A stretch of DNA of 34,244 bases, taken from a virus (lineage: Duplodnaviria > Caudoviricetes). Of the stretch, positions 6,156-31,223 are shown piece after piece; position 1 is the first letter of the stretch; each line of letters starts with the position of its first letter. The position numbers and the translations under genes were made by a program. The notes under the pieces were generated by a model that saw only the letters and a program-made list of their open reading frames with translations, searched no databases and had not been told where the DNA came from. Location: IMG/VR virus record IMGVR_UViG_3300048597_000593, positions 1 through 34,244 of that record. One strand, given 5' to 3'.

Positions 6156-6182
6156 GACGTTGATTCTCATTGCGGGGGCAAT

Positions 6183-6713
6183 ATGGCCAATCGGTATTTC
6201 AGGGGACAGGGTACAGTCAAAATTGGCACTAGGGATAGCGCCGGGGCCGCCGTTGGGCTGCGGTCGATTGGCAACTGTCCCATGCTCAATATTGCGATCG
6301 CCGAAGAATTTTCCGAGCATTACGAATCCGAAACCGGCGATCGGCGCATGGATTTAAAGGTGCGGACAAGCTTAAAAGTAGACATCACATTCATGATCGA
6401 AAGCTTCGACTTGGCCAATTGGCTGATGGCTTTCAATGGAGCGGAAGGAACCGGCGGCGCAGGGGAAGAAGTGGTGGAAGCCTTCAACGCTGACCGGGTG
6501 GATTACTATATGCGCTTTGAGGGGATGAACACCCTGGAGGGTAAAAATCCGATCACGGTTAATTTGTTTAAAGTTGACCTGTCCCCGCCATCCTCCCTGG
6601 ATTTGATTTCTGATGAGCTAGTCGGGCTGGAAATGACCGGCAGTGTTTTGTACGACAGCCTAAACGAAGACCTTGGTGGTTACTTCACCATCACCCAAGT
6701 AGCACCAGCGTAG
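6183..6713 (+). CDS. Tail tube-like protein (short paralog of 26615..27382)
   Basis: GTVKIGTRD/GTVHIGERD, EEFSEHYESETGD/QEFVEHMEHQSGD, YYMRFEGMNT/YYLFFQGYNT, LFKVDL/FYKVSF. Confidence 0.85.
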   Translation: MANRYFRGQGTVKIGTRDSAGAAVGLRSIGNCPMLNIAIAEEFSEHYESETGDRRMDLKVRTSLKVDITFMIESFDLANWLMAFNGAEGTGGAGEEVVEAFNADRVDYYMRFEGMNTLEGKNPITVNLFKVDLSPPSSLDLISDELVGLEMTGSVLYDSLNEDLGGYFTITQVAPA

Positions 6714-6723
6714 GAATAACTAA

Positions 6724-9864: not shown

Positions 9865-9866
9865 CG

Positions 9867-10745
9867 ATGCCTAATTTAATCAACACCTATGCTGACAACG
9901 TTTTTTACAATTACGCAACGCCTCTAGTAAGAGGAGAGTCTGCGGCGATGAACAATACGGATTTTAATAATGGCCTAACCAATTTTTTTACCGAAAAACT
10001 AGGTGCTGTAGGTACGGCTTGGCGACAGGATAGTGGGTTTTGGTTTATGCGATTCCCTGCGCCAGGACTGGAAATGAAAACTGGAAACATGAGCAGTGGG
10101 ACGCAGCTTGGTTTTCAACGAGCGGCGGTTCGTTTTTTTGCTAGGACAGCGCAGATCAATGCTAATACTGCCAATACTAACAATCTCGACTTAGTTGGCG
10201 ACACGTTAAGTGTATCCCTAGGGACTTCAAATGCATCAAATGTCAGCTTCGCTTGCATTAATGATTACGCTCTGACCTTCTGTTACTTTACGGATAACAC
10301 GTTTTCAGTGCTCAGAAAGTTTTGTTATGTGGGTTGGTTGCGGGAACCGTCGTTTACAGGAACAAGCATAGGAGTGCGAGGGCTTTGCGTAATTAATCGA
10401 ACTAGCATTCCATCCTTAACCACCGTTAGACCAACTACGGAGAATGCCACTGCATCAACCAATCTATCCAACGCTGACAACTCCATTACCAATCCTCCTA
10501 TTACTTGCGGGGGAGACGCTAGCGACATAATTATTAGAGATGATTCCGCCCCGAACTATGCTATTGGTAAATTGTGGAATTGTGTTAGTTTGCCCAACGA
10601 AGCAGTGGTAGGGCAAATCTGGAAAAATACTGGGCCAGACGTTGATGGGTACACCGAGTCGGATAACACCAACAAATATCTGGTAGTAATGCCCTGGGGG
10701 GGGAGGAAATTGGGAATGAGAATTTGGACAGAGGGGTTTGTCTAG
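9867..10745 (+). CDS. Putative tail-tip / receptor-binding protein
   Basis: 292 aa, N/T/S/G-rich, last gene of tail operon; function inferred from position only. Confidence 0.6.
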   Translation: MPNLINTYADNVFYNYATPLVRGESAAMNNTDFNNGLTNFFTEKLGAVGTAWRQDSGFWFMRFPAPGLEMKTGNMSSGTQLGFQRAAVRFFARTAQINANTANTNNLDLVGDTLSVSLGTSNASNVSFACINDYALTFCYFTDNTFSVLRKFCYVGWLREPSFTGTSIGVRGLCVINRTSIPSLTTVRPTTENATASTNLSNADNSITNPPITCGGDASDIIIRDDSAPNYAIGKLWNCVSLPNEAVVGQIWKNTGPDVDGYTESDNTNKYLVVMPWGGRKLGMRIWTEGFV

Positions 10746-12286
10746 AGTAAAAAAGATACAATCTGATTAAATATTTGTTGCCCTGTTGCATTGATTGGCC
10801 AATTTGGAACCGAAAATACGTTGCTGTTAAATGGAGGATATCCATTGTTAGCATTAATTGCATCTGTTAGATGTCCGGTAAACGCAATTTCTTGCAAACC
10901 TGGGGGGGATGGGGTTGGGACAAATACTACGGTGTTTATGATGGCGTAATTAGGAGCGACAGCGTTAAATCCAGCGTGGTCTGATAGGTATAGCTCGGTT
11001 GGCTCTAAGCTTAAGTTCCTAGGATTATTTCGGTGATAGCTAAAAAATGCTTCGTTGATAAATATCAAAAACAAGTATTTTTCTGGTTCACTGGGATTGT
11101 CTCTATAATCTTCTGCAAGCCAGCTAACCCATCGCTCATTATTTATTCGAATAACAGGCTTCACGTATTTATTCGCCGTTTCTTCTGTGCCGTAAACCTG
11201 AGTGATCAATATATTCCTAAGTTCATCTATTGCGCTAGTTAATGGAGCAAGAACTTCAGACATTGATCCACTGCTATCATATATGGTGATTATGTAAGTT
11301 TCGTTGTCTATATCTACAGATATATCACCGCCACCTGAGCTACCTCCGCCTGGATCGCCGCCAGTTGATTTTACGGAGAGGCTGTTGAGGGCAAAGAGGC
11401 TTTCCCGATCGCCAATGTTTTCACCATAATAATTTTCGTCATGGGCTTCAAATTGGAGTCCGAGGGAATCGGTGTTAAAGCGGACAAGTTGCCAGGTTTC
11501 AGTTTGCCAGTCGTAGAAGTTGAAGGGGACTAGCTGACCACGGCAGAGGCGGAACATGGTAATCATCCTGGTCATTTCCGCCACATTGACCACCTTTGCC
11601 CCGATATTCCATTGGCTTTTACTGCCGGAATAATTGGACTGGCGATCGTCCCAGCCGGAGGGGAGGGCCATGATCGCCGTGGAGTAATTTAATCCCCCGG
11701 TGGTGCCGTAATCCTTGCCAATGCCCAAGTCAGCATCAATGGAAGCAGGGGGAACCTGGAGGGGAGCTTCGGGCCAAACTTTGCGGACTTCGGTGCAGGT
11801 CAATTCCTGTAAATTGAAAAGTCTTTCGCCATCGGGGGAATAGGCTTCAAAGCTGAGGGGAAACGCATCCTGGTCGAAGCGGACGGGCACATTGAACTCA
11901 CAGCTAATGGCACCGCCATCATCAACGATGGTTTCCTCTACCACAGCGGTAAGGAGGCGCTGAATGGTTTCTCCCCCCAGGCTATAGGTTTTAATTACGG
12001 ATTGTCGCCCTTCAATGACTGGACCCAAAGTGCCATCGGTTACTTGGTAATCTGTCCAATCCCGAATTTCAAACTCATTCAATCTGCCCTGGGCCGCTTC
12101 AAAAAAAGCCAGCAAATAATCCAACTCCTCTTTGTTGACCATGCGATTACCGATCGCCACTTTGAGGAGGGGCTGTTGGTAGAGGGCCCGGCGTTGTTCC
12201 ACCCCTGCCCGATTGCTGATGATGTCGGTGGCAAAGTTGAGGGAATAGGATGCCCCGTAATTGATACCTAAATCCAGAATGGCCAT
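10742..12286 (-). CDS. DUF2460-type distal tail protein, duplicated, with C-terminal vWA-like domain
   Basis: DLGINYGASY...GVEQRR and DLGIGKDYGTTGG...GWDDRQ repeats, PVRFDQD/VRFNTD; DSSGSMS MIDAS-like motif. Confidence 0.85.
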   Translation of the reverse strand: MAILDLGINYGASYSLNFATDIISNRAGVEQRRALYQQPLLKVAIGNRMVNKEELDYLLAFFEAAQGRLNEFEIRDWTDYQVTDGTLGPVIEGRQSVIKTYSLGGETIQRLLTAVVEETIVDDGGAISCEFNVPVRFDQDAFPLSFEAYSPDGERLFNLQELTCTEVRKVWPEAPLQVPPASIDADLGIGKDYGTTGGLNYSTAIMALPSGWDDRQSNYSGSKSQWNIGAKVVNVAEMTRMITMFRLCRGQLVPFNFYDWQTETWQLVRFNTDSLGLQFEAHDENYYGENIGDRESLFALNSLSVKSTGGDPGGGSSGGGDISVDIDNETYIITIYDSSGSMSEVLAPLTSAIDELRNILITQVYGTEETANKYVKPVIRINNERWVSWLAEDYRDNPSEPEKYLFLIFINEAFFSYHRNNPRNLSLEPTELYLSDHAGFNAVAPNYAIINTVVFVPTPSPPGLQEIAFTGHLTDAINANNGYPPFNSNVFSVPNWPINATGQQIFNQIVSFLL

Positions 12287-13137
12287 TAGTTAGTTGTCCC
12301 CCATTGTGCAAAGCCGGATTGCCCAGGGATGATGCCCTCGCCGCCATAGTTGAGGATATTGCCCCAGCGGTTCTGACAATCCTCCTCGGTTTTGAGGCAA
12401 TTTTCATAGGTCTCGAAGCTGTCCCCCGCTTCGATGTTGTAAGGGGTGGGGGATGCTAAGCGGAAGGTACTGCCATTGGAATAAATCACATTGCCCACAT
12501 AGCCCGCATTGTCCCCCGTCAACCATTCCACCGTTGACCCAGTGAACCGATTGTCGGCAAACGAATCAGCAACCGTGAACTGCAGGCGATCGCCGTTAGA
12601 TCCGGTGACGGTCTTGCTGACGTAGGTTAATTCCTTTTTGCAAAATTGATCGCCAAACTGATAGCGGCAATCCTTCTGACATTGCCAACCATTGCGGGCT
12701 TTGAGGTCATCCGCCAATCCTCGAAATTGTAGAGTGTAACGGCGATCGCCATAGTTGGTGATGCCTACCCGCCCCCGCACCAACAAATCATATTGCCGGG
12801 GTATGGCATCCAAATCGGTGGGTAAGCTGGCCCAATTGACCCGTATAAATTCCACCGTGGCATCCTCAAAAATGCCGCCATCCAATTCGGGGCGAGTCAC
12901 CTGATCGCCGAAAAAACTACTTATGGAAACTTGCCCGGAACCACTGAAATTACTATCCACATCGGTGGGGGCAAAGCCCTCGGCGGAGATGTAGGTTAGC
13001 CCGGCAAAGGTCAGGTCATGTTCAAAATCGGTGAACCCGAGGATTTCCCCGTCCTGTCGGATTACTCGCCAACAATGGGCAATGGTTTGGATGGTGCCGG
13101 CATTCCCGGTGGTGTAGGTACTGGCTAAAGCTTTCAT
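12286..13137 (-). CDS. DUF2163/BR0599-type baseplate hub protein
   Basis: CWRVIRQDGEILGFTDFEHDL, CRYQFGDQFC, CLKTEEDC...NILNYGG; start ATG 13137 with GGAGG. Confidence 0.9.
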   Translation of the reverse strand: MKALASTYTTGNAGTIQTIAHCWRVIRQDGEILGFTDFEHDLTFAGLTYISAEGFAPTDVDSNFSGSGQVSISSFFGDQVTRPELDGGIFEDATVEFIRVNWASLPTDLDAIPRQYDLLVRGRVGITNYGDRRYTLQFRGLADDLKARNGWQCQKDCRYQFGDQFCKKELTYVSKTVTGSNGDRLQFTVADSFADNRFTGSTVEWLTGDNAGYVGNVIYSNGSTFRLASPTPYNIEAGDSFETYENCLKTEEDCQNRWGNILNYGGEGIIPGQSGFAQWGTTN

Positions 13138-13160
13138 GGTTCCTCCCAGATTCCCTAGCC

Positions 13161-13177
13161 AGAATAAATTTATACAG
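13161..13177 (-). promoter_or_regulatory. Degenerate late promoter copy (CTGTATAAATTTATTCT)
   Basis: GTATAAAT core about 38 nt upstream of DUF2163 start. Confidence 0.55.
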
Positions 13178-13198
13178 GGGGGAGGAAGGATGGCGATC

Positions 13199-13354
13199 TT
13201 AGTCTTTAACGATTGCCCAACCCAGCATTGTTTCTTCATCGACAAAAAAACGATCCTCGGCTCTAGCCATGGCTATTTGCATTTCAGTTAGCCGATCAGA
13301 GGAAACAATTTTTGCGTTATCGGGGCATTTCAACAAAAAATCTCTTGCGTTCAT
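13199..13354 (-). CDS. Small hypothetical protein (51 aa)
   Basis: Read manually: MNARDFLLKCPDNAKIVSSDRLTEMQIAMARAEDRFFVDEETMLGWAIVKD; fills intergenic gap. Confidence 0.55.
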   Translation of the reverse strand: MNARDFLLKCPDNAKIVSSDRLTEMQIAMARAEDRFFVDEETMLGWAIVKD

Positions 13355-13531
13355 GGTTAATCATTTAGTAAAACAACACTTGTATTTTAACCGGGGCCAA
13401 GCTGGGCCAATTTGTGGCCAAAGGGACAATCCTTTCACAGACTGGGTTTTGGGGAATAGCAGCCAAAAAAGCGAAATAATCGCCAGGCGTGGACGAAAGG
13501 ATGGTGCGTCAGTGAATAAAAATTCTTCAGA

Positions 13532-13601
13532 TATAATCTGCGAACCCCTCACGGAACGACTAATTCCCAGGGGTTGTAACACCTTCGTAGCAGGTATCAC
13601 C
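13532..13601 (+). promoter_or_regulatory. -10 box plus two-hairpin leader
   Basis: TATAAT 13532-37; AACCCCT/AGGGGTT with inner GGAA-CGACTAA-TTCC; ACCT-N7-AGGT before ATG. Confidence 0.65.
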
Positions 13602-14417
13602 ATGGAAAGTATCGTAAGGCAAACTGCCACCACCCAAGAGTCTCCATTTGATTCCATTCGCCAAGTTGATGAGCACGGAAAAGAATTTTGGTCGGCCCGT
13701 GACCTGATGCCGATGCTGGGATACGCTAAATGGCAAAAGTTTAAAGATGTTATCGAGACGGCAGGGGAAAATCTTGAAACCGTTACAGGACAAGTGATTA
13801 ACCACATTACCCCTACGGATAAGATGGTTAAACGTCCCCAAGGTGGCGGAACTACTCAATTGGATTACAAGCTTTCTCGGTTGGCTTGTTACCATGTTGC
13901 TCTTTGCTGCGATTCCCGTGGCAATGACCAAGTGAAATTTGCCAAGCATTATTTCGCCGTCAAAACCCATCAAGCAGAAACCGTTATTCCCGAACTAGCC
14001 CAGGAAAATGAAACCCTACGGTTAATGCTGGAATTGGAGCGGGAACGCAACAAAGGAAAGCAGTTGGATTCAACAATGCTTCAACTTCATGGCGATCGGG
14101 TGGTATTGGCTTTGCGGGGACAGGCTGACGTGATTGTGGAGAAAGAAACTGTCATTACCGAGGTGGTGGAACCTGACACGGGCAAAACCTCTAAAATTCT
14201 GACAGCCGACCAACTAAAGCGGGCCGTCAAAGAACGGACAGGGCAGAAGCTTTCCACTGCCAAACAATTCACCGATGCCCTACGCAAAGCCGGACGGGAC
14301 GATCTGTTAGAACCAGTGCGACGTTCCCAGGTTGTGGAGTATGTCAAACCGGAATTTCTCAATGAGGCGATCGCCGTTGTCTATGGCAAATATCGGCAAC
14401 GATTGATTGGGGAATAA
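13602..14417 (+). CDS. BRO-N/DinD-like antirepressor-type protein
   Basis: FDSIRQ...EFWSARDLMPMLGYAKWQKF, DYKLSRLACY, AKHYFAVKT; start trimmed to 13602. Confidence 0.85.
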   Translation: MESIVRQTATTQESPFDSIRQVDEHGKEFWSARDLMPMLGYAKWQKFKDVIETAGENLETVTGQVINHITPTDKMVKRPQGGGTTQLDYKLSRLACYHVALCCDSRGNDQVKFAKHYFAVKTHQAETVIPELAQENETLRLMLELERERNKGKQLDSTMLQLHGDRVVLALRGQADVIVEKETVITEVVEPDTGKTSKILTADQLKRAVKERTGQKLSTAKQFTDALRKAGRDDLLEPVRRSQVVEYVKPEFLNEAIAVVYGKYRQRLIGE

Positions 14418-14697: not shown

Positions 14698-17600
14698 CTA
14701 TCGAATAGCCCGCCGCATTGCTTCCGCTTGTTCCCTGGCCAAGGTATTGGCCGAGGCGTTGAACCTATCCACCGGGGCATGGAAATTCTGCTCAATGGTG
14801 ATGCTTGGTCGGCGATCGCCGTTGGCCTTTTGGCCTTCTGCGGTGGCCAGGGCGGAGGGGTTCAGGTTGTAATTAGGACGGGAATTTAGCCCAGAAAGTA
14901 AATTACTTTCTAGATTCATCGGGGCCACCAGTCCCCCCAGGGCATAACCGGGTTTGATGCCTTGGTTGAGGGCATTTAGCAGGGGCAGCCCTAATTCCCG
15001 GGTAGCTTCCTTATTGAGCACATATTCCCCAGCATGGACAATGCCCGCCGGTTTATATTTGCCTCCCGGCCCCGTGTATCCCCCTTCACTAAAGCCAAAT
15101 AGACCACCGACCAAACTTTGTATCCCAGTGTTAATAAGGTTTTTGCCAATCTCCATCAGGGATTCCATCAGGGCATTGCCAAACGCCTGCAACGCATTTT
15201 CTCCCCGGAGCAAAGCATCAAAAAAGCTATTAAATGCTCCAGCCACGCCCATGCCGATACTCTCGGTTAGGTCGAGGAATTGACGATCAACCAAGGCCAA
15301 ATTCTGGGCGAGAATTTCCGCCTCCCGGTTAATGGCCGCTTGTTTTTCCGCCGCTGTGCCATACCGTGGATCGTTCAGAATCTCAAATTCTTTCTTGGCA
15401 AATTCCGCCCGTAGCCGCTCCTCCTCCATGCCTTGCTGCATGGTGGCCGCAGTGTAGGGATTGCGTTCCAAGCTGATCGCATTGGTGTTGAATCGTTGCT
15501 CCCGCTCAAAGGCAAGATCCGCCCGTTCAATTTGCCGTTGTCCGAAATCCCGTTCAATTTGCTCAATTCTGTTCAGGTAGCCCTGCCTGTTTTCCTCTAG
15601 CAGAGTCCGCTTTTTGTCGGTTTCAAAAATCTCCAGGTTGATGCGGGCTTCCTCTTGCTTAAATTCAATGGCCGCCTTGGCCATTTCCAGTTGCAGTTTC
15701 CGGGCTTCATTCCCCTCAAACTCCGCCCTGGTAATCGCTTTGGTGATTATCTCCAAGGCGATCGCCGCATCAGCACTTTCCCGCTCATACACTGCCCGCT
15801 GAGCCGAAATATCCGCCGATTTTTGCAGATTAGCTAGGTATTTTTTCAGATCCTCTGGCCTGTCGCCCATGGACAAGGTGGCCTCATTGGCCATGCTGGC
15901 CCGGTTTAACTCAATCCGTCTCAAGTCAGATTGAAGTTTTGCCTCGTTGTTGCCGGAAGCCTGGGCAATTTCCGACTCTAGCCCCACGGCTTGTAATTCC
16001 TGTTGGATGCTCCGCTGTTGGGCTTGAATTTGAATAAATTGCTCCGCCTGTCGCCGCACTTGGTCCAATTGGCCCAATTGCCCTTGGATTTCCGTCAAGG
16101 CAGATTTGGCAGCCGTCACCGATGCCCCAATCGTTTCCCGGGTCGCATTGTATCGGTCCAGAATCGGTTGCAATAGTTGCTGTTGTTCTGGCGGCAAAGA
16201 ACCAAATCCAGCGGCGATCGCCTCCATTTCTTGCTGAAATTTTTCGGTTCCCTTCAAGAAATCGTTAATGTCCCTGGCCTGTTGTTCTAGTCCCATCCGT
16301 TTATTGCGGAAAGTTGTCTCCAGTTCCCGCAAATCTGCCTCCGCCTGACTGGTCAAAGTCTGGCCGCCATAACGGGCGATCAGGTCAGCAAATTCATTGC
16401 GGGCATCCTGGGTAGCGTTAACGGTGTCCCTGGTAAATCCCCCAAATTGCCGGGATATTTCCTCAAACCTTTGCTGATTACTCAATAGAAATTGTTCTAA
16501 TTTCAATGCGGCATCCGCATCACTGAGATTAGCCAGGTCTAAATTCAAGTCCTGCATTTGGCTGGTCATTGCCCTAGCTCGGTCAATGTTGGGGTCATTG
16601 GCCGGCTTAGCTTGGGCTGTGGTGGTGGCGGCTGAGCTTCCAAAATTACGCTGGTATTCTGCGTAATATGCCATCACTGTTTTGACATGATTTTGGGTTT
16701 CCCTGAATGGAGGAATGCCGCCATATCGTTGGACATTGCCCGGACCTGCGTTGTAGGCCGCCAAACCAAGCTCAGGACTACCAAAAGCCTTGATTTGCTG
16801 TTGTAGGTATCTCGCCCCGCCAAAGATATTTTGCCTTGGGTCAAACACATCTTTGACACCCATTTCCCTGGCTGTTCCTGGCATTAGCTGAGTTAACCCC
16901 CTAGCTCCAGCAGGGGAAACAGCCCTGGGATTAAATGTCGATTCCTTCCGAATATTTGCGGCTAGTAACAGTGGATCTAGCCCGTATTGCTTAGCCGCTT
17001 CTTGGATAATGTCCCAATAAGGAATATTTGGTTTTTTGGCTGGGGTTGCCGATGATTGTGTGGCCGATGGGGTTCCCGGCATTCCTCCAACAACTTTTAC
17101 GTTTCTGCCATCAAACTTAATCAGCCCTAGCTTTTCATAAAATTTGATGGGGTCAACCGTTGCACTGCGATTGTTAAAACTTGCCTGCCCTTGGGCGTTG
17201 ATATTTTGGGTATGGATTTCGTAATGCAAAACCCCAGTCCCCGATTCGCCATAACCAACCGAGCCACCAGGAGCAATGACATCACCTAATTTGGCTGTAA
17301 GAGTAGCCATTTCAGCAATGCGCTCAACCACCTTTAACTGAGCATTATAAATATCAACAAAATGCCCATACCCACCGGGGTTGTTGCCTACCCTCGTTAT
17401 AGTTCCACCAATGAAGCTTTGGGCCTGTTGATTGCCTGAAATATCAAAGTCAACTCCCTGGTGTGCCCCTTTGCCTCGTCTTCTGTCGGCTCCCCATTGT
17501 TGCCCAGGGATTGTATTGGTTCGATAGGATTCAGTTACCCTGCCCCCAGCCGTTGCCGCTTGTTGTTGCCTTGCGCCACCACTGGCCGCTGTGCCCCCCG

Positions 17601-20600
17601 TTGCTGTGGAAGTAGTAGCTGTACCTCCCCCTAGGGAAGCCCGAAACGCATTAACCGCCTCCGTTGCCCCGGCCACAGACCGTTGGAAATCAACCATCTG
17701 ATTTTCCAGGCTGTAATTAGCTCCGGCTAATTGGAAGCGACGTTGCTGGGAACCCAGAATCGAATCCAGCACCCCAGCCGCTTCATCAAATAAACCTTGA
17801 ATGGATTGGACAACGCCATTGAGGAAACTGTTGGAACCAGGCACCAATGCCCGTTGCAGTTGTAACTTAAGTTGGTTCGATTTGAGTTGGTTGGTAGCTT
17901 TGGCAATTTCAAACTGAGCATCAACTATCTGTTGGGTCAGGTTCTGGAAAAAGTCATTTACCTGACGGGTAAGCCCAAATACACTTTCCTCTAGGTCGAT
18001 GGCATTCTGGGCGATCGCCTCTTGGGTTTGTTGTAATTCCTGGCGGGTTTCGATGATACGCTTGGCCAATTCCGCCACCGCTGTGGTTTGCGGATCTCGA
18101 TTTTCGCCAATGACTCTTTCCAGGGAAGCCAGATTCATTTCCAGCCCCCGTTCTAGTAGTTGCCGTTCTAGTTCCTGGTATTCCTTGGCAAATTGGTCAT
18201 CCTGCAATAGGGTTTCCTGTTGCCCCAACATTTGCTGTAAAAAGGCTTCCCGTTGCTGGGCTTCCTGCTGGGAAAGGTTGGCTAAGCCCACACCCCGCAC
18301 CGCTGACCCTGTGCCATCCTGCAAAGCTGTGGTCAGGTAATCAATGCGGCGACGGCTGGAAATACGCTCCAGGGTTTCGGAAAACGCCGACATACTTTCA
18401 CTGATTTTCTCCAGTTCCCGGCTCAGGGCATTAGTGGACATCTGGACAGAATTAACCAACTTATCGAAACCTTGCTGGGCTTCTTTCAATGCCCCCAGGC
18501 GATCTTCCAATGCCGCCCGCTGGGTTTGCTCTGCCGCCCGGGTGATACCTCCCCGAGCTACCAAAGCATCCAGGTCGGAGAGTGCCTGCTCCGTAGCGGT
18601 AATATCTTTGGTCAATCGTTCACCATAGGCAGAGGTGGCCGCCACCAAATCTTCCCGTTGGGCCAATAACTTTTTCTCCTCCTCCACCGATTTTTCGTAA
18701 GCTTGGCGATCGCCGGCGATATTTTCAAAGCGACGGGAGCGGACAACATTCAGTTGTTCTTCAATGGCGAGAACTTGCTCTACTCGTTTCTTCTCTTCAT
18801 TGCCGGCCATCACCGTTTGGTCAGCGGCCAACATTTGGCCACTACTTTGGATGATGAAATCGTTCATCTGCTTTTCACCCAAGGTGGTCAACCCCAATGC
18901 TTTGCGAGTGCCTTCTAGGTTTAGCCCCGTGTCAAAACCAAAGGGTTTCCAGGTCTGATCTGTAACAACGCCCCGGCCGTCAGTGGGCAGTGGATTTGAT
19001 TGCGAAGTAGTCTTATTGAGTTTTGCCACTGCCGCTTCATGGGCGATCGCCGCTTTAGTGGCTGCGTCAATAGAATTGGCATATTCCTTGAATCGGTTTT
19101 GCGTAACGTTGAATGCGGCCCCGAGAGCGCTTAACGCCAACTCCATTAAGGCAACATGGACCACAAACATCATTATGTGGGGACGGATCGCCGTGAAGAA
19201 TTTCATAATCACGGACTGCAACGCCCTGATTATCCCCATCGCAAACTGACTGCTTTTAACAACAGCAATTAGGGATTTGGCAAAGGAAAGACCATCCCAA
19301 GCCATTACCAACCCTGCCATGGTGACAATCCTGATTAGGGTGGGCAAGGCTTTTGTGAACAATTCAACTGCTGCAGTAGCAACGGCGATCGCCTCTTTCA
19401 CTCCCACAAACCAATCACCCATGTTTCTTTGCATTTCCAAGATGGCGTTTTGGTAACGGGCAATGGCTTGAGTGGTAGTTTCTGCGCTATTGGAAACCAC
19501 CGCATTTTCCGCCGCATACTGGGCCGCCACCTTGGGCAGCACATCCGCCGCCATGATGGAACCAGAAGCCATGGCATCATCCAACTGGGCTACGCCAATC
19601 CCCATAGACCGGGCTAAGGTTCCTTGGAAATCTAGCCCCGCAATCTCTCCTAATTGCCCCCTAACTTCCTCGGCACTAATTTTTTGCTTGCCCAACATTT
19701 GTTGGATCGCTGTGAACATTCGCCCCTGCTCTTCAGCATTAAGCCCACGAACGGATGCGGTTTGGGCAAAAATATCGAATATTTTCTTGGTTTCTGCTCC
19801 TTGGAGTGCCGTGCCTCTGGTGGTGGCCAATAAGCCCTGATAGGCTTGCTCGGCAGTTTGCAAATCAATGCCCAGTTTTTTGGCGGTGTCGCTGACAAAC
19901 TGTAATTCTGTTTTAGCCTTGGCAGAGCTTCCGGTTAATGCCACAAAACTACGGTTAAGGGACTCAAACCCGATCACTGCTTCAAAGCTAGCGGAGGCTA
20001 ATTGGGCAAAACCCATAACCATAGACTCCAGCGCCTTGCCGATCAGTGTCCCAGCAAAAAGCCCCAGCACAACATCACCCAGCTTGCCAATAATCGGGAA
20101 TGATTCTTTTATTTGTTGATAAAGTTCGGACATTCCCGAGGTGATGGATTCCACCGCTTCGCCTGCCCCGCTATCCACTTCTCGGATGAATCGGCGCACG
20201 TTATTGGCGGTACCTTCCCCTAGGGTGTCTAAGGCATCAGCAAAGCCTTGTATCACCATCTGTCCAATGTCGAAAAATTCCTCCGAGGGGGATTTAATAC
20301 CCAGGGCATCCTTTGCCCCTTTAATGGCCGCTTCTCCAATATCTATCCCGGATTGTTCGGCACTTTTTAGGTCGGCTTCAATGCCAGCGGTGAATCCTTC
20401 ATCAACACTATTGCCAATTTCCTGCCATAGCCCAGTGGCGGCCCGCCCTTTCATATTGGGCTGACCTTTGATTACTTCGTTTCGGAGCTTGGTAGATTCC
20501 CCGGACTTACCGCTCCAGAGCTTTTTGCCCTTGGCGGTGGTGACCTCTTGGCTCATCTGCTGATAGAGCACCTTCACCTGCTCGGTTTGCTCCAACAATT

Positions 20601-23600
20601 CCAACCCCAATGCTTTAGCCAGAACTTTATTCCCTTCGGCGATCGCCTGACGGAATTGGGATTTTTTCTGGTCTAATCCTTGGTTGAGGTTATCAATTTT
20701 GCCCCGGACAGCTTGGGCAATGTCGGCACCGGATTCCCGTAGTTCCGCTAATTCTGCATCTAGTCCGGTTTTGAAATTTTCCCGAATACCCTCTAGCCAC
20801 TGGTGCAAGTACGCCAAATATTTATCGGCTTGCTGTTTGGTGTCGATGGCAGGGCCCCACGCCGACTTATCAGCACCGCCAAATCCTTCTGGCTTGGGTG
20901 CGGCCGGTTCATCCCAAATGTCATAGTTGGCATTGGGTTCCACGGTCTTCGCTGTTTGTCCTCTGGATTTGACCCTAGCTCGACGACCACGACGGCGATC
21001 GGGTTCAGCGGTGGGAGATTCTGGAGCTTGGCTTGATTTTTTGCCTTGGAACACGCCACCAAGGGCATTGATCGCCTGACGACCCCATTTAACAAGGTTG
21101 CCGATAAAGGGTATTTGCTCCAGAAAGTCTAGAACACCGTTAAATGCGTAAATTACTGCTTGGCGGCCAGCTTCCACGCCATTAACTAGCCCATCTATGG
21201 ATTGCTGTCCGATTTTCGCCATCCGCTTGGAGGGGGAGGAAATATCTAGGCTGTCCTCGGTTCCTTCTGCCAGAGCATCACCGATTTCCCCGCCAGTGCC
21301 CCGCAGTTTGCCCCAAAAGCTTTTAATGCTATCGATCAAGTTCTCGACTGCATTACGTCCAACATCGTCAAGGTTCTCAAATTCAACCTGATCTGGTTCA
21401 AAGGCAATGGCAAAACCCCGATCTTTTATAAAGAGGGAGTCATAGCCCCGCTTTTGCAGAAGTTTAGTTCTGTCCCTGTCGTATTGTTCAAATGCTTGCG
21501 GATCTTTTAATGGCGTTGTTGTTTCAAACGGATCAACCAATTCGCCCGCATTTTCCGCCTCGGTAATAAGTTTTCGGTATTCAAGCTCATCAATAATTAA
21601 AGGGTTTTTGACTTTTAGTTTGGCTTTGAGTACCGCTGGACGGCGATGATCGTTGGCGTAACTTTGAGCCTCCGTTATGTCGTTGGCCATATAAAAGCCT
21701 TTGCCATACAAGGCATCTGTGGCCCGATCAACATCAATGCCTTGATTTCTGATAGACCTTGCCGCCGCTTTACTGGTGCCATGAAAGAAGTCCATCCGCA
21801 GGATTTCGGCAACTTCTTCTTTAATGTTTTCTACTTCTGCTTTTACTGCCTCCGCCGCATCCCGTAGGCTTTCCACTACACCTATTTCAAAGCCTTTGCC
21901 CGCCATCTCGCCCCGTTTCCGCATCTCCTCCGAGGGGGAGTGCATATCAAGGGATTCATCAATGCCATCTTTTGTTGCATCGCCAATATCTGCCGCCGCC
22001 GACTTAATATCAACAACATGGGACCTGACGGCATCCATAAACGAAATTGCCGCATTATCCCCTGCCTCTGCCATGCGCCCTGCTTCATCAATTACCTGGG
22101 TAACACCTTGGGAAGCCCGCCCCTTAGCAAGCGAACCTTTCATTACCTCCGTTTGCTGATGGGTAGCCGATCCCACCTGCCCCTGCCATGTATTTTTCCC
22201 TGCCCTTGTGCCAGCTTGCTTAGCCATAGCCCGGTAATAGGCCTTAAGCTGTTCTTCCTGGATTAAAATTGCCTCACCCACCGCCAACGCTATCTCCCGA
22301 TTACCATCGGCGATCGCCTGACGGAATTGGGCGACCCGATCATCCAGCCCGCCTCGTAGTGCGTCAATTTCTGACCTTAAGCCTTCTGGAATATTTGACT
22401 GTGTTGCCCGAAGCTGTTCTATTTGGGAATGAATAGCGGACTCCGTAGCAGAGCGCATTTCTGCCAAAAAGTCCGTCATTGATTGCCGCCAACTATCCGC
22501 CAATGGCAGTGGGGTGCCTGCGACTTGATTGGAAAAATCCTTCCCGGCCAAACGCACGTTATCCACTGCGGCAACAATGCCAGCCAGAGCGTCAAATGGT
22601 TTCTTTTCGGGCTTTATTCCTGTTGATTGGTCTTGAGAAATCAGCTTTTGTCGCTGATTTAGTAATTCCTGGTCGGTTAGGGTGGTGAAAGGAGCTAACG
22701 GGAAAGGAGTAACCCTGTCAATTGCTCTATTAACCGGAGCTGCCACCTTGCCAACGAGGGGGCCTTTAACACCCCTTGTAATGATTTCAGAGCCGACCTT
22801 GCCAGACAAGTAGGGGGCAACTTCACTAGTTACGAAACCATCTAAAACATTGTTCTCGATTACCTGATCGGCAATGTAATTACGAATATGCTCCGGCACC
22901 CCTGGGGCGATCCAACCCGCTAATTGATGCCCAGAGTTTTTTGCTGCCCCCTGTATAGCCCCAACACCTAAGCTACTAAATCTATTGCCCAAATACTCCC
23001 CGACAATGCCATCCCCGGCGATCGCCGTACCAGCACTAGATAACGCCTGCCGTGCCGGTTGCAAGGCCACCCGTGTCTGTCCATTCAAAAAGGATTTAGC
23101 AAAGTTGCCAACTAGTCCCCGTCCCAATGCAGAATTGCCAATGGCGTGCAATGGAGCAGAAATGGCTTTATTCAGACCTGGAGATAGCCCAGGTACCGCC
23201 AGATCCACATCTGGGGAGGTAATGGTTTTAATGGTGCGGTTAATGGCACCACCAAAGGAATCCTCTAACCAGGATGGAATCAGATTGCGAATCCAACCAT
23301 TAAGCCCCATGGCATTAGCGGCATCCCCTATACCCTTGCCAACTATAGTGCCGGAGGTATAGCCTACTGCCGCATTTCTGAGCTTATCAGGCAGAAACTT
23401 TCTGTTTTCCTTGAATTGCTTCCAGAATTCGCCTGTTGCTGGGTTTAGCCCTTGTTTTTGTAGTCCCCTAAAATTAGTTACATCGTCATAACCTGTTTCC
23501 CCTATTAATCGCCCAACTAGCCCCCCGCCGAAGCCGCCCATAGGGTGTCCCGTAGCCCCCCGCCCGATTACCATGCCGGGAACAGTAAAGGCGGTGGTCA

Positions 23601-25938
23601 TTACCGTCTTTTTGAATTCCTGACGGAAATTCTCCTTAAATCTTTCAGCGGCGAGATATAAGCGCCCTTGTATCTTGGCGATTAGTCGGTCAATTTTGCC
23701 ATTGAGTGCATCAACATCAATCCAGACATTTGGCTCTATCTCTATTTCGGTTTTAACTTTTCTGGCTCTTTTTTCCCTATTGAATGACTCCGCAATAAAT
23801 ACATCTATCTTGTTTTTGTCACCTTCATTAGTCCCTCTTGCCAACTCGCCAGGTTGTGATCTTCCAGGTAAGGCGGGGACACTATCCCCAGGGTTAGCGG
23901 GCATAGTATCCAGGCCCAAGCGTCCCAAATACCAAGGGTGATTACCGCCGAAACCACGTCTAGATCTTCTATTTCCTCCAATGACATCCGAAATATTCGG
24001 CTCAATCGAAACTTGATTAGGTTGATCAGCATTTCTGTCTCCTTGTTTTTTGACTATCTTGCCACCATCCGTCAAATTTTCTTTCCGTTGCTTGGTAGGG
24101 GTGCCCCCCTGGGAATGTACGGGGTTAGGACGATCGCCTGGCTGATTGCGATTTTTGGAGGACTTTTTGGAATTGCCCTTGTTTTTAGAGTCGGAGGCTT
24201 CCTCTAATTCAATACCAGGCAAGCCGACAGGCTGAGCTACAGATGGGCTAATATCTTCTACCGTAATCACCCAAAAATCCTGCCCCAGACGCTTAACCTT
24301 GCGCTTGTTGAGAATCTTGAAATCAGAATTGGGGGCAAACAAAACCTCTTCGTTGTCAAATGCCTCAAATCCGCTGACATCCTTGCCGGTGCCTTTGCTG
24401 ATAACCTCGACTAGGACATTGCCGGGGTAACGCTTTAAGTCATTCTTGGTGGTGGAGGTGAAGCCCTCTTCGTGCCAAATCTGACCAGGATTAAGGTTTT
24501 CTCGGATAACGCTTTCCGGCAACTGTAATCCCCGGTAGCTTTTGCCCTTATACCCAGGCATAGCATTCATGCCGGCGATCGCCGCATTGGCATTGATAAC
24601 TGCATCTTGCTGTAATTGCTCCAGTGACCTATCTATGCCAAGTCGCTTTTTGAACTTTTTAGGGAGCCACTGCCCGGCCTTGCCCCGTAGGGTATCGTTG
24701 ATTTCCTGGTAGCCTAAATCCTCCGTGTAATAACGGATCGCCGACATTTCCTCCAGGTTTTTATTATTTTTGCCTCTGCCATATTGGGAGACGTTTCGCT
24801 TATATTTTTGCAGTAGGTCGGGGCGCTCTGACTCCATAAAGCGAACATAATCCAACTTTTGTTGAGGGCTAAAAACTCCCTGCTTTTGTCTAGTTGCGGC
24901 TAACTGTTCTTTCTCTTCATCGGTTAACTTTTCTTCAATGGCGATCTGCTCTTGCAGGTAGGCAATGCGCTTTTGATAAAGTGCCTCTAATTTTTTCGGG
25001 TCACTAGTCCCGGTGTAGCGGTTTAAAAACTTGCTGATTTTGCCAGAAAGGACGGGGATTTTTTCCCTCAGCCCACTTTTGCCGGTTTCCCTGGCGTAAA
25101 TATGCACAGCCGCTCTTTTGGTATCAGCGGGATTTTCCACTGCATCTCTCACCGTGCCCGCCGTACTAAAGCCTGCGTCGGTGACGGCTTGACTACTGCC
25201 AGCAATGGTAATCTTGATATTTTTCTTGAGGGAACGGTCAAAGCCCTCCACCAGGCGATCGCCAATGCCATAAAAAATCCCCTGGATGAGCATTTGGCTC
25301 CAGGATTGATTGATATTGACATTTAATGGCTTGGACCTAAGTTGCTGGACAATCAAGGTGGCCGTGGTTCTCGGCAATGTGTTAGACAGTTGCCTAATTT
25401 CGAGGCGAATTGCAGAGCCAATACTTCTGCCTACAGCTTTGCCGGTTTCATTGGCGACGACTAGCGCTTGCTCTTTGTCTGCATCACTGCTCGGCTCAGT
25501 TTTTCCCCTTCTAATTCCGGTGGCAAACTGCCCCTTCATATCCGCTACTAATCCCCGGATTTCCTGGGCTGTAACTTGGCGAATATCGCTTAAAGCAATC
25601 TTCCACTCTGCCAATAATTGACTGGAAAAATCATCTGGCACTACCCTCGCAGGGGCGATCGCCTTGGCTTTAGTCGCAGAAACAAAGCGCCCCTTTTCAT
25701 CCCTGGGGCGTTCCTTGTTGGGCTTAACATTTTTAACTGCTTTGACAGCCCGCTCTTCCCGGTTGGTCGCTTCAATGCCCTTGCGGATGGCCCGCAACTC
25801 ATCGGTCTGGCGACGTTGTTCCGATAACCGGGTGCGACCATAGGCGGCCCGCCGGCCAGCATCCCCAATCAGGGTATCCCGCAGTCGTTCGATGGAACCA
25901 ACAACCGCCGCAAATCCCTGATTATTAGTGCTAGCCAT
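14698..25938 (-). CDS. Giant tape measure protein with two ADP-ribosyltransferase-like domains, M23 peptidase and lytic transglycosylase
   Basis: Follows tail chaperones; KISAEEVRGQLGE tape-measure motif; FSEGGYTGPGGKY.PAGIVHAGEYVL C-terminus; YRG/FTSTT/EEVL; HGT/YGKGFY; HQGVDF/HYE; ES.FN...GLTQLM...YNAG. Confidence 0.92.
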   Translation of the reverse strand: MASTNNQGFAAVVGSIERLRDTLIGDAGRRAAYGRTRLSEQRRQTDELRAIRKGIEATNREERAVKAVKNVKPNKERPRDEKGRFVSATKAKAIAPARVVPDDFSSQLLAEWKIALSDIRQVTAQEIRGLVADMKGQFATGIRRGKTEPSSDADKEQALVVANETGKAVGRSIGSAIRLEIRQLSNTLPRTTATLIVQQLRSKPLNVNINQSWSQMLIQGIFYGIGDRLVEGFDRSLKKNIKITIAGSSQAVTDAGFSTAGTVRDAVENPADTKRAAVHIYARETGKSGLREKIPVLSGKISKFLNRYTGTSDPKKLEALYQKRIAYLQEQIAIEEKLTDEEKEQLAATRQKQGVFSPQQKLDYVRFMESERPDLLQKYKRNVSQYGRGKNNKNLEEMSAIRYYTEDLGYQEINDTLRGKAGQWLPKKFKKRLGIDRSLEQLQQDAVINANAAIAGMNAMPGYKGKSYRGLQLPESVIRENLNPGQIWHEEGFTSTTKNDLKRYPGNVLVEVISKGTGKDVSGFEAFDNEEVLFAPNSDFKILNKRKVKRLGQDFWVITVEDISPSVAQPVGLPGIELEEASDSKNKGNSKKSSKNRNQPGDRPNPVHSQGGTPTKQRKENLTDGGKIVKKQGDRNADQPNQVSIEPNISDVIGGNRRSRRGFGGNHPWYLGRLGLDTMPANPGDSVPALPGRSQPGELARGTNEGDKNKIDVFIAESFNREKRARKVKTEIEIEPNVWIDVDALNGKIDRLIAKIQGRLYLAAERFKENFRQEFKKTVMTTAFTVPGMVIGRGATGHPMGGFGGGLVGRLIGETGYDDVTNFRGLQKQGLNPATGEFWKQFKENRKFLPDKLRNAAVGYTSGTIVGKGIGDAANAMGLNGWIRNLIPSWLEDSFGGAINRTIKTITSPDVDLAVPGLSPGLNKAISAPLHAIGNSALGRGLVGNFAKSFLNGQTRVALQPARQALSSAGTAIAGDGIVGEYLGNRFSSLGVGAIQGAAKNSGHQLAGWIAPGVPEHIRNYIADQVIENNVLDGFVTSEVAPYLSGKVGSEIITRGVKGPLVGKVAAPVNRAIDRVTPFPLAPFTTLTDQELLNQRQKLISQDQSTGIKPEKKPFDALAGIVAAVDNVRLAGKDFSNQVAGTPLPLADSWRQSMTDFLAEMRSATESAIHSQIEQLRATQSNIPEGLRSEIDALRGGLDDRVAQFRQAIADGNREIALAVGEAILIQEEQLKAYYRAMAKQAGTRAGKNTWQGQVGSATHQQTEVMKGSLAKGRASQGVTQVIDEAGRMAEAGDNAAISFMDAVRSHVVDIKSAAADIGDATKDGIDESLDMHSPSEEMRKRGEMAGKGFEIGVVESLRDAAEAVKAEVENIKEEVAEILRMDFFHGTSKAAARSIRNQGIDVDRATDALYGKGFYMANDITEAQSYANDHRRPAVLKAKLKVKNPLIIDELEYRKLITEAENAGELVDPFETTTPLKDPQAFEQYDRDRTKLLQKRGYDSLFIKDRGFAIAFEPDQVEFENLDDVGRNAVENLIDSIKSFWGKLRGTGGEIGDALAEGTEDSLDISSPSKRMAKIGQQSIDGLVNGVEAGRQAVIYAFNGVLDFLEQIPFIGNLVKWGRQAINALGGVFQGKKSSQAPESPTAEPDRRRGRRARVKSRGQTAKTVEPNANYDIWDEPAAPKPEGFGGADKSAWGPAIDTKQQADKYLAYLHQWLEGIRENFKTGLDAELAELRESGADIAQAVRGKIDNLNQGLDQKKSQFRQAIAEGNKVLAKALGLELLEQTEQVKVLYQQMSQEVTTAKGKKLWSGKSGESTKLRNEVIKGQPNMKGRAATGLWQEIGNSVDEGFTAGIEADLKSAEQSGIDIGEAAIKGAKDALGIKSPSEEFFDIGQMVIQGFADALDTLGEGTANNVRRFIREVDSGAGEAVESITSGMSELYQQIKESFPIIGKLGDVVLGLFAGTLIGKALESMVMGFAQLASASFEAVIGFESLNRSFVALTGSSAKAKTELQFVSDTAKKLGIDLQTAEQAYQGLLATTRGTALQGAETKKIFDIFAQTASVRGLNAEEQGRMFTAIQQMLGKQKISAEEVRGQLGEIAGLDFQGTLARSMGIGVAQLDDAMASGSIMAADVLPKVAAQYAAENAVVSNSAETTTQAIARYQNAILEMQRNMGDWFVGVKEAIAVATAAVELFTKALPTLIRIVTMAGLVMAWDGLSFAKSLIAVVKSSQFAMGIIRALQSVIMKFFTAIRPHIMMFVVHVALMELALSALGAAFNVTQNRFKEYANSIDAATKAAIAHEAAVAKLNKTTSQSNPLPTDGRGVVTDQTWKPFGFDTGLNLEGTRKALGLTTLGEKQMNDFIIQSSGQMLAADQTVMAGNEEKKRVEQVLAIEEQLNVVRSRRFENIAGDRQAYEKSVEEEKKLLAQREDLVAATSAYGERLTKDITATEQALSDLDALVARGGITRAAEQTQRAALEDRLGALKEAQQGFDKLVNSVQMSTNALSRELEKISESMSAFSETLERISSRRRIDYLTTALQDGTGSAVRGVGLANLSQQEAQQREAFLQQMLGQQETLLQDDQFAKEYQELERQLLERGLEMNLASLERVIGENRDPQTTAVAELAKRIIETRQELQQTQEAIAQNAIDLEESVFGLTRQVNDFFQNLTQQIVDAQFEIAKATNQLKSNQLKLQLQRALVPGSNSFLNGVVQSIQGLFDEAAGVLDSILGSQQRRFQLAGANYSLENQMVDFQRSVAGATEAVNAFRASLGGGTATTSTATGGTAASGGARQQQAATAGGRVTESYRTNTIPGQQWGADRRRGKGAHQGVDFDISGNQQAQSFIGGTITRVGNNPGGYGHFVDIYNAQLKVVERIAEMATLTAKLGDVIAPGGSVGYGESGTGVLHYEIHTQNINAQGQASFNNRSATVDPIKFYEKLGLIKFDGRNVKVVGGMPGTPSATQSSATPAKKPNIPYWDIIQEAAKQYGLDPLLLAANIRKESTFNPRAVSPAGARGLTQLMPGTAREMGVKDVFDPRQNIFGGARYLQQQIKAFGSPELGLAAYNAGPGNVQRYGGIPPFRETQNHVKTVMAYYAEYQRNFGSSAATTTAQAKPANDPNIDRARAMTSQMQDLNLDLANLSDADAALKLEQFLLSNQQRFEEISRQFGGFTRDTVNATQDARNEFADLIARYGGQTLTSQAEADLRELETTFRNKRMGLEQQARDINDFLKGTEKFQQEMEAIAAGFGSLPPEQQQLLQPILDRYNATRETIGASVTAAKSALTEIQGQLGQLDQVRRQAEQFIQIQAQQRSIQQELQAVGLESEIAQASGNNEAKLQSDLRRIELNRASMANEATLSMGDRPEDLKKYLANLQKSADISAQRAVYERESADAAIALEIITKAITRAEFEGNEARKLQLEMAKAAIEFKQEEARINLEIFETDKKRTLLEENRQGYLNRIEQIERDFGQRQIERADLAFEREQRFNTNAISLERNPYTAATMQQGMEEERLRAEFAKKEFEILNDPRYGTAAEKQAAINREAEILAQNLALVDRQFLDLTESIGMGVAGAFNSFFDALLRGENALQAFGNALMESLMEIGKNLINTGIQSLVGGLFGFSEGGYTGPGGKYKPAGIVHAGEYVLNKEATRELGLPLLNALNQGIKPGYALGGLVAPMNLESNLLSGLNSRPNYNLNPSALATAEGQKANGDRRPSITIEQNFHAPVDRFNASANTLAREQAEAMRRAIR

Positions 25939-26122
25939 GGCCGCCCAATCCCTTCAACGCTTTTTTGATAGATTTGTCATTTCCCTGGGAGGCGATCGCC
26001 GTCAGCATGAGTTGATTGCGACGGTCTTCGGCCTCTAGTTCGGTGGAACATTCCAGGAACAGTTTGATTTGGGCAAAGGTGTAATTTTGAATTTCTTCCC
26101 ACCGATGCCCTGCTTTAATCAA
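25931..26122 (-). CDS. Tail assembly chaperone, downstream (-1 frame) part
   Basis: LIKAGHRWEEIQNYTFAQIKLFL; lies between chaperone and TMP; its frame stays open back into upstream gene. Confidence 0.75.
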   Translation of the reverse strand: MIKAGHRWEEIQNYTFAQIKLFLECSTELEAEDRRNQLMLTAIASQGNDKSIKKALKGLGGHG

Positions 26123-26133
26123 TCGGGAAATGG

Positions 26134-26544
26134 TTAGTCCCCAGTCTTCGCCGGGGCCGCCTCTTCCCCGCTGGCTTCTGCCTTTTTGGGATTTAGTCGT
26201 TTGCTGATTGCCGTGAAAAAATCCATATTCATTTGCAGGATTTCCGTCAGTAGGCAGATCACTTCGTCATAGCCAAAGTCGTCCAGTTCAGAAACACCGG
26301 ATACCAGGGTGATCAGTTTGGCAATATCGTCCATAACCGCATAACCTTCCTCCTGCTTTTGCAAAAGGGCACTAATCATCTGGTCGGTGGTCAATTCCGG
26401 GTTAGAGATAATTTGCAAATACTTATCCACCAACTCCAAAGCTTCATTCAGTTGCTTAAATTTGAACGGCTTGAGGGTGATGGTGCCCGCACTGGTGGCA
26501 AAGCTTTCAGCGGGAATTAAAACTGCTAGTTGTTTACTGGCCAT
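26134..26544 (-). CDS. Tail assembly chaperone
   Basis: Between tail tube and TMP; ITLKPFKFKQL...NMDFF. Confidence 0.8.
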   Translation of the reverse strand: MASKQLAVLIPAESFATSAGTITLKPFKFKQLNEALELVDKYLQIISNPELTTDQMISALLQKQEEGYAVMDDIAKLITLVSGVSELDDFGYDEVICLLTEILQMNMDFFTAISKRLNPKKAEASGEEAAPAKTGD

Positions 26545-26614: not shown

Positions 26615-27382
26615 TTAGTCAGCCAGGATGTAGTTGCCATAGCCTGCCAGGTTACCGGCGGTGGCTTGGAGGGGTTCAAATAACGCCTCAAAGGGGCAGG
26701 TCATCTGGATAATTTCATCGCCTAGCAGGTTGCCCAAGGAAGCTGCATCAAAGCTTACTTTGTAGAAATCCAGGGATACCCGTTTTTTGTTGATGGTGTT
26801 GTAACCCTGGAAAAACAGGTAATATTCCTTGAAGTTTTCGCCAAAGAAGCTGGCGGCGGTGCTATCCCCGGAGGTGTAGTTGACCAGAATGTCTTCCCCG
26901 GCCAAGGTGGAACCTGCGGGAACATAAATTAGGCGGCCATCCACCACGTAATCTTCCCCAGCTACATAGGTGGTGCCGGTGGGGTCAGAAGTAACGGAAG
27001 TGACGGCATTAACAATGGGGGAATTAAGCGGGAAGCTGTGCCCTACGGCGGGGGCGGTGTGGGCTTCGGCGGAAACGCTGGCCCCGGTTTCACTGTCTAA
27101 GGTGCCCCGGATAAAGGTTTTGAAGTTTTGGGAACCGGTGTTATCCAGAATCAAGTTGCCGTTGATGGTGGTCATCCGGGGGATTTTGACGTCCTTTTTG
27201 CCGTCCCCGGATTGGTGCTCCATGTGCTCCACAAATTCCTGGGAGGTTTCAAAGGTCAATTCAGAAGCATCGCCAAGAAAAATTAGTCCCGTGGCCGCCA
27301 GGGTGCCGGTGGTCAAATCCCGTTCGCCAATGTGTACCGTTCCGCCTAGTCTCTGATAATATTCGGGCAATCCAAAAGCCAT
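26615..27382 (-). CDS. Major tail tube protein
   Basis: Between tail terminator and chaperones; own late-promoter motif; central TYVAGEDYVVD insert. Confidence 0.88.
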   Translation of the reverse strand: MAFGLPEYYQRLGGTVHIGERDLTTGTLAATGLIFLGDASELTFETSQEFVEHMEHQSGDGKKDVKIPRMTTINGNLILDNTGSQNFKTFIRGTLDSETGASVSAEAHTAPAVGHSFPLNSPIVNAVTSVTSDPTGTTYVAGEDYVVDGRLIYVPAGSTLAGEDILVNYTSGDSTAASFFGENFKEYYLFFQGYNTINKKRVSLDFYKVSFDAASLGNLLGDEIIQMTCPFEALFEPLQATAGNLAGYGNYILAD

Positions 27383-27415: not shown

Positions 27416-27432
27416 ATTGTGGATTTATACGG
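27416..27432 (-). promoter_or_regulatory. Putative late promoter CCGTATAAATCCACAAT
   Basis: Exact motif copy upstream of tail tube gene. Confidence 0.8.
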
Positions 27433-28471: not shown

Positions 28472-28488
28472 ATTGTGGATTTATACGG
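28472..28488 (-). promoter_or_regulatory. Putative late promoter CCGTATAAATCCACAAT
   Basis: Exact motif copy upstream of 28439 start. Confidence 0.8.
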
Positions 28489-28583
28489 GGTCAGACGGCG
28501 CTCAAGAACCCCAAAGGATTTTGCATTAGGCAGAGAGTATAAATATGATTAAAAATGTAATATGTAATCCACCGAAACAAGTC

Positions 28584-31206: not shown

Positions 31207-31223
31207 ATTGTCGATTTATACGG
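31207..31223 (-). promoter_or_regulatory. Putative late promoter CCGTATAAATCGACAAT
   Basis: 16/17 match to motif. Confidence 0.8.

Follow-up and report, generated by a model that had tools for sequence, protein, structure and literature searches.

A tape measure protein family with a fixed scaffold and exchangeable enzyme cargo, including ADP-ribosyltransferase-fold cassettes, in a putative cyanobacterial siphophage

We describe a giant tape measure protein (TMP), encoded in a 34,244-nt stretch of viral DNA (hereafter, the window), whose family combines a fixed scaffold with two exchangeable cargo zones and carries ADP-ribosyltransferases (ARTs) as optional, exchangeable cassettes. What is shown here is the domain content with its order, a scaffold that stays constant, cargo exchange among close relatives and borders marked by SPS repeats, and we consider it fairly probable that the TMP delivers its enzymes at infection. 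The optional and exchangeable nature of the ARTs was missed in the initial annotation of the window, which had presented a TMP loaded with two ARTs of different clades and two peptidoglycan hydrolases. TMPs are usually viewed as rulers and DNA channels, bearing at most a wall-cutting domain. If the proposed delivery is correct, siphophages, in addition to packing proteins in the head, would have another way of bringing in counter-defense enzymes ahead of gene expression.

Genomic context and identification of the tape measure protein

The window comes from a linear, metagenomic virus record that is 58% complete, and represents a temperate, HIP1-rich siphophage with integrase and HTH repressor genes (Pfam). 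HIP1 abundance is tied to cyanobacteria, so the 22 HIP1 sites in the window, versus about 0.5 expected under equal base frequencies, point to a cyanobacterial host. The TMP gene (14698..25938, minus strand) is a single ORF of 3746 aa without an internal stop, and the plus strand of the same interval contains stops throughout. It is located directly after the genes assigned with PHROGs to the major tail protein (26615..27382, minus strand; phrog_807) and a tail assembly chaperone pair, consisting of a 136-aa frame and an overlapping 63-aa frame in the -1 register (25931..26544, minus strand), and ahead of DUF2460 and baseplate-hub genes of a GTA-like non-contractile tip (10742..13245, minus strand; Pfam). 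No match to a tail sheath was detected among the ORFs scanned in the window, i.e., in a record of the completeness given above.

Pfam analysis of the whole chain returned SLT (E 2.6e-27), TMP_3 (E 1.6e-18) and ART-PolyVal (E 3e-9, above the cut-off), and PHROGs matched the chain to many TMP families. These matches and the position after the chaperones bear out the earlier assignment, which had been given without a strand: judged from its sequence, the ORF is a siphophage TMP. The TMP_3 core spans aa 1987–2174 (19417..19980; all features within the gene lie on the minus strand) and includes the tape-measure motif; a hydrophobic segment is found ahead of it (aa 1947–1974, 20017..20100) and a hydrophobic, membrane-helix-like segment behind it (aa 2247–2278, 19105..19200). 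The C-terminal TMP motif GGYTG...GIVHAGEYV is located at 15019..15084, with GGYTG at aa 3619 and GIVHAGEYV at aa 3632. TMP-type helical repeats closed by an SPS motif are present as copy 1 (aa 1153–1354, 21877..22482; TMP PHROGs, best E 7.6e-7) and copy 3 (aa 1705–1908, 20215..20826), which have in common a 32-nt direct repeat (94%), and the intervening SPS repeat, copy 2 (aa 1547–1590, 21169..21300), marks the start of DNA identity to the relative L003. A conserved glycine-rich cassette (aa 775–1099, 22642..23616) received no Pfam, PHROG or Atlas assignment (best Atlas score 0.79), and an exchangeable C-terminal slot occupies aa 2771–3114 (16597..17628). The five stretches positioned in the initial annotation, namely the R-S-E ART (aa 395–557), H-Y ART (aa 1382–1520), tape-measure motif (aa 1993–2167), M23 (aa 2810–2937) and SLT (aa 2970–3093), were all found where it had placed them.

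Fixed scaffold and exchangeable cargo zones

Protein, viral-contig and genome searches yielded 23 non-duplicate family members, leaving out duplicates (L001, L002, L007), partial loci (L006, L010), distant loci (L013–L016, L032–L039) and L005 (5608–17359), where the TMP gene is divided between two overlapping frames by a frameshift or a sequencing error. Among the 21 members with both slot borders, TMP length ranged from 2479 to 4254 aa. The core-to-slot scaffold measured 798±12 aa (range 783–830) and the post-slot scaffold 651±19 aa (616–686); the cargo zones were variable, with 823–2448 aa in the N-terminal zone and 108–577 aa in the slot. A hydrophobic segment was present at core +207 to +296 in 23/23 members.

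This length pattern raises the question of how much of the chain acts as the ruler. The N-terminal half could be a translational fusion that is cleaved in tail assembly, acting late in the producing cell, or that is packed separately, with the C-terminal part of about 1760 aa as the ruler. Such a scheme would fit the near-constant length from core to C-terminus (without the slot), set against a threefold variation of the N-terminal zone, as well as the HExxH peptidase of 6/23 members and the cleavage of T5 and lambda TMPs in morphogenesis (PMC10038345). However, repeats matching TMP PHROGs are interspersed through the N-terminal zone, the same zone of the window TMP contains neither a peptidase cassette nor an HExxH motif, the nearest cassette relatives sit on virion head proteins, and a late-acting enzyme would gain nothing from fusion to a TMP; we therefore consider this scheme distinctly unlikely. 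At 1.5 Å of tail length per TMP residue (PMC7354433), a tail of about 560 nm is predicted with the full TMP as ruler and of about 265 nm with the C-terminal part only.

The N-terminal cassettes of the 23 members comprise alpha/beta-hydrolase (17), glycine-rich (14), H-Y ART-like (8, i.e., seven close copies and L004), an unassigned 190-aa cassette (8), HExxH peptidase (6), N-x-E ART (5) and kinase (2). The search for homologs with and without the ART inserts, which had been proposed with the initial annotation, found some ART in 12 members and no recognized ART in the other 11, so the ARTs are dispensable for the TMP role; R-S-E and H-Y domains occur together only in the window TMP. Member counts are not independent, because nine members form one close clade. 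All matches of six cassette profiles (49/49) were N-terminal of the core, a count that is not fully independent since the profiles were built from N-terminal cassettes. A wall-enzyme Pfam match was found in 16 of the 21 slots and none in four, one slot being outside the scan. Eighteen of 23 internal cassettes begin within 100 aa of an SPS module.

Exchange is evident in the comparison with L003, the nearest relative. At the DNA level, ORF nt 4657–8339 are 85% and nt 9334–11241 are 90% identical, with the ART zone and the slot unrelated; L003 has neither ART and carries alpha/beta-hydrolase, NlpC/P60 and glucosaminidase instead. In a quick tree, the window TMP, L003 and P0002 formed one clade (SH-aLRT 100) with three different cargo sets, and each ART type was spread over several clades. 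The comparison offers a clear example of domains exchanged recently within a TMP, a class for which such exchange could not be confirmed in a mosaicism survey of phage proteins (PMC10684548). That the two-ART combination is instead a misassembled chimera seems barely credible: it does come from a single, incomplete metagenomic record and both ART types are found in only 1/23 members, but the R-S-E domain also stands beside the glycine-rich cassette in L008 and P0018, the glycine-rich cassette is followed by an H-Y domain in six others, the frame stays open over 11.2 kb, and leader and core both match L003.

The clearest cassette array was observed in L004 (9734–22033), whose 4099-aa TMP contains five enzyme cassettes (a hydrolase, two ART-like and two HExxH) between SPS repeats, with internal DNA repeats of 78–82%; its two ART-like cassettes are motif-based calls, one of them with an additional Pfam match below the cut-off (E 3.1e-5). 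The 190-aa cassette (L007 10460–11029 and seven other members) displays, on visual inspection, an R...S...E-x-E-like pattern. Its candidacy as an R-S-E ART was dropped (hhalign probability 0.3) and it was not counted as an ART; Pfam, PHROG and PDB searches with this cassette gave no useful match.

The core was matched in 9/401 genomes of the cyanobacterial phylum (E 1e-10). Of nine regions retrieved, L031 belongs to the family; hydrolase, HExxH or kinase cassettes precede the core in L032, L033, L035 and L036. One named host record, Pannus brasiliensis (L002), holds an ART-free family member. Among 50,697 GenBank phage records, 1109 were matched, all below 60% identity and none over 80% of the query, i.e., no close TMP.

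The R-S-E domain

The R-S-E ART-fold cassette spans aa 395–565 (24244..24756), with R469, S495 and N529-x-E531 as the motif residues. Pfam ADPrib_exo_Tox matched the isolated piece only (E 1.6e-6) and was missed on the whole chain; alignment, AlphaFold (pLDDT 91) and Foldseek (Vis and Tre1, E about 2e-12) show that both the ARTC fold and the R-S-E triad are present. Structure prediction per domain had been suggested as a check on the two-ART claim, and with the H-Y model described below it supports two ART folds of different clades.

T4 Alt is a virion-delivered ART, and the window protein had initially been likened to it. The R-S-E domain resembles the arginine ARTs T4 Alt, Tre1 and Vis in fold and triad, but its ARTT loop contains N-x-E in place of E-x-E, and is by alignment one residue shorter than that of Tre1, and the domain is embedded in a TMP. 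When the query was aligned with two TMP copies and 150 database hits, N-x-E was found in 20 of the 22 best-ranked rows versus E-x-E in 126 of the 131 remaining rows; the R, S and E residues are kept in 5/5 TMP copies and across all 22 of the best-ranked rows. According to mutagenesis, E-x-E governs arginine transfer, and a relative with Q-x-E or K-x-E can be an NADase only, or inactive (PMC3102197). Because arginine specificity depends on this motif, the N-x-E domain is set apart as a distinct clade, and the analogy with T4 Alt fails on a defining feature. Arginine ADP-ribosylation by this domain appears unlikely; the acceptor may be another residue, nucleic acid, or water, the last making it an NADase.

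The H-Y domain

The second cassette, of the H-Y ART-PolyVal type, covers about aa 1382–1520 (21379..21792), with H1386, Y1416, Y1427, D1500 and D1506. It scored 44.3 bits against Pfam PF18760 (cut-off 31.2), with His and Tyr present and an ARTD fold, and its AlphaFold model (pLDDT 86) matched PARP/diphtheria-type folds. H1386, Y1416, Y1427 and D1500 (the Asp of the GYD motif) are kept in 8/8 close H-Y copies and D1506 in 7/8, which by conservation makes D1500 and D1506 the candidates for a catalytic Asp on strand 5. By motif register from the alignment, rather than by superposition, F1509 occupies the Glu position of PARPs and diphtheria toxin, where we take the PARP register to define the canonical site.

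The best structural match of the model was 9K3A_B residues 1418–1601 (Z 10.1, rmsd 3.6, 133 aligned; Foldseek E 3.8e-6), the sole chain out of 48,161 to reach a Z of 8, followed by AcrIF11 and PARPs. From its residue numbers, chain B should be gp27 of cyanophage A4. The available main text and supplement of the A4 paper (PMC12002296) contain no mention of ADP-ribosylation or ART, and the ART fold in this solved ejection protein was apparently unremarked before. The A4 pre-ejectosome (9K3A, 9K2V; PMC12002296) is comparable with the window TMP in that its cyanophage ejection proteins are packed in the virion, include SLT plus M23 (both on gp28) and contain the region matching the H-Y model; unlike the TMP, it is a podophage capsid core of four proteins. 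AcrIF11 (6KYF) has the H-Y-clade fold (Foldseek E 5.6e-4; VIA Z 6.4), a candidate Asp and likewise no canonical Glu, but is only 17% identical, small and stand-alone, with an H-F-H-D site versus H-Y-Y in the window domain; phmmer of the H-Y domain against 6KYF gave no match at E 10. Its activity as a transferase relies on an Asp (PMC8120803).

These motif differences also bear on what the two domains would do once delivered. They might serve as NAD+ hydrolases or NAD-binding decoys, lowering NAD+ or soaking up a defense sensor, a reading that we regard as rather unlikely. It could account for the N-x-E enrichment and the shorter loop of the R-S-E domain and for the missing canonical Glu of the H-Y domain, and there is a precedent in rat ART2, which carries Q-x-E and hydrolyzes NAD+ only (PMC3102197). 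On the other hand, AcrIF11, the second Foldseek hit, is an active transferase, the N is conserved rather than random, as expected of an acceptor-selecting residue, and an NAD+ drain would presumably hurt a phage that needs a live host. In our main reading, the H-Y domain would act as a mono-ART like AcrIF11 and other ART-PolyVal-type enzymes and would rely on an aspartate.

No relatives were retrieved when the H-Y domain was used in word-based protein searches, and the lone locus from the viral-contig scan, L030, was rejected from its alignment as a chance match. At L050 (1441–2110), a stand-alone H-Y relative and a 73-aa Cys-rich ORF are located between proC-like and argS-like genes and possibly form a toxin-antitoxin pair.

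The same cassettes on other carriers

The N-x-E ART also occurs on a MuF fusion (P0026), and the non-TMP protein P0025 carries both ART types plus a hydrolase. Cultured-phage matches of the two ART domains (12 and 2 records) are minor-head, virion or unannotated proteins, the best being minor-head/MuF. By these matches, the cassettes are independent of their carrier. Five non-TMP proteins (P0017, P0020, P0021, P0024, P0025) combine the N-x-E ART with short Cys motifs and, in most, a hydrolase, and are likely head-associated polyvalent proteins.

No ART-bearing TMP was found in the literature searched, a set with most subscription papers outside it. The same cassette types were already known on MuF and polyvalent head proteins; this family adds the TMP as a carrier, with visible cassette exchange. 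Phage polyvalent proteins (Iyer et al. 2017, PMC5512222) are likewise large late-gene products with several conflict enzymes, share ART-PolyVal, HExxH peptidase, kinase and SLT cassettes with the TMP family, and have been proposed to be injected along with DNA. Their definition includes H-Y-D-clade ARTs only and an MPTase or LPD hub, whereas the window TMP has an R-S-E ART and an N-terminal zone free of HExxH. MuF/minor-head fusions (PMC7302621; PMC3482391) also place an ART, which one phage has and a relative lacks, on a virion protein, but the carrier is a head protein rather than the tail ruler and the cargo a single C-terminal toxin rather than an internal array; no MuF domain (PF04233) was matched in the window TMP.

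Cell-wall enzymes of the C-terminal slot

Of the two peptidoglycan hydrolases originally claimed, both folds were recovered, and the SLT lytic transglycosylase (16690..17010), with E2999 at the catalytic position, looks canonical and intact. The M23 domain (17203..17466; E 2.8e-5 on the whole chain, below the cut-off, and 8.8e-7 on the isolated piece, just above it) proved to be non-canonical. Its Zn ligands H2826, D2830 and H2905 are kept, and E2876 and V2903 replace both catalytic His of LytM, which we take to be H260 and H291. A 57% identical copy in the otherwise distant TMP of L017 has the same two substitutions, which argues for a conserved variant and not decay. This Glu-type M23 variant and the N-x-E ART clade are two uncharacterized groups brought out by the analysis. 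By eye, the slots of P0004–P0009, P0011, P0012, P0014 and L008 appear to contain a circularly permuted M23, with an HxH-like motif before HxxxD; those of P0006 and P0009 have an additional beta-lactamase/PBP-like domain.

Proposed delivery and role of the cargo

The logic of delivery with an ejected TMP, put forward in the initial annotation, gains support from where the cargo lies relative to the hydrophobic segments, from the occurrence of the same cassettes on MuF/head proteins and from the ART-like fold in a solved cyanophage ejection protein. The C-terminal end of TMPs occupies the tail tip and is the first part to exit (PMC11445458; PMC10038345). If the window TMP behaves as those of T5 and JBD30, its C-terminus would exit the tail first, the slot enzymes (SLT and variant M23) would act in the periplasm to open the cell wall, and the mid-chain hydrophobic segments would insert into the inner membrane. 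The N-terminal half would end in the cytoplasm, the site of NAD+ and ATP, and refold, and the two ART-fold domains would likely consume NAD+ and modify host or defense targets ahead of phage gene expression. Recombination at the repeats may account for cassette gain and loss.

Muralytic TMPs such as T5 pb2 (PMC10038345) share the C-terminal wall enzyme, the hydrophobic segments and ejection, but T5 lacks cytoplasm-type enzymes, and the TMPs of T5 and JBD30 reach about one third of the length of the window TMP. The hydrophobic stretch of the T5 TMP was modeled in the outer membrane (PMC10038345), which makes the topology proposed here an extrapolation. A tail tube lumen of about 40 Å (PMC8718954) is probably too narrow for three TMP copies with their domains folded, so the cargo must be unfolded or cleaved.

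Whom the cargo would act upon is a further question. As proposed for MuF toxins, it could be a lysogen's weapon, with released particles poisoning non-lysogen neighbors. The phage is temperate, cassettes are exchanged like polymorphic toxins, the closest match of the R-S-E domain, Tre1, is an interbacterial toxin, and a stand-alone H-Y relative is found on a cyanobacterial chromosome (L050) with a small Cys-rich partner gene. Yet the cargo is internal, not C-terminal, death of a newly infected cell blocks progeny, and the Cys-rich partner motif of the L050 type (one motif only) was absent from the window and 20 TMP loci scanned; this role has little likelihood in our view. Counter-defense in the infected cell is favored over general takeover, since members can do without the cargo and its turnover is fast. 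In its boldest form, which we advance tentatively, the family would constitute a tail-borne effector injection system, in which a repeat-bounded magazine of cassettes, reshuffled by recombination, acts in the cytoplasm ahead of all phage gene expression and disables host defenses. Its effectors would include an N-x-E ART clade whose acceptor is not arginine, together with H-Y ARTs, kinases, peptidases and esterases.

Additional features of the window

A second, shorter tail-tube paralog and a Phage-tail_3 tip gene (6183..9363, within the interval 6183–10745, plus strand; Pfam, PHROGs) are convergent on the main late operon. The tip gene is likewise on the opposite strand in the relatives L003, L004, L005, L007, L008 and L012. 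Inversion or misassembly of these plus-strand genes was rejected, because the layout is common to relatives and the genes have their own upstream motif. This 17-nt motif, CCGTATAAATC[C/G]ACAAT, occurs in five copies in the window (0.01 expected by chance), some tens of bases ahead of structural genes: 6139–6155 on the plus strand, and 27416–27432, 28472–28488, 31207–31223 and 34223–34239 on the minus strand. Its core is also present in L003 and L004, and it is likely a late promoter.

Pfam further identified a ParB-Dam methylase fusion (1509–2918, minus strand) and a Hydrolase_2 lysin with a second domain (29115–30065, minus strand). Two endonuclease-like genes and a Bro-N gene (28545–29099, 31309–32643 and 13269–14417, plus strand; Pfam) are oriented against the late operon.
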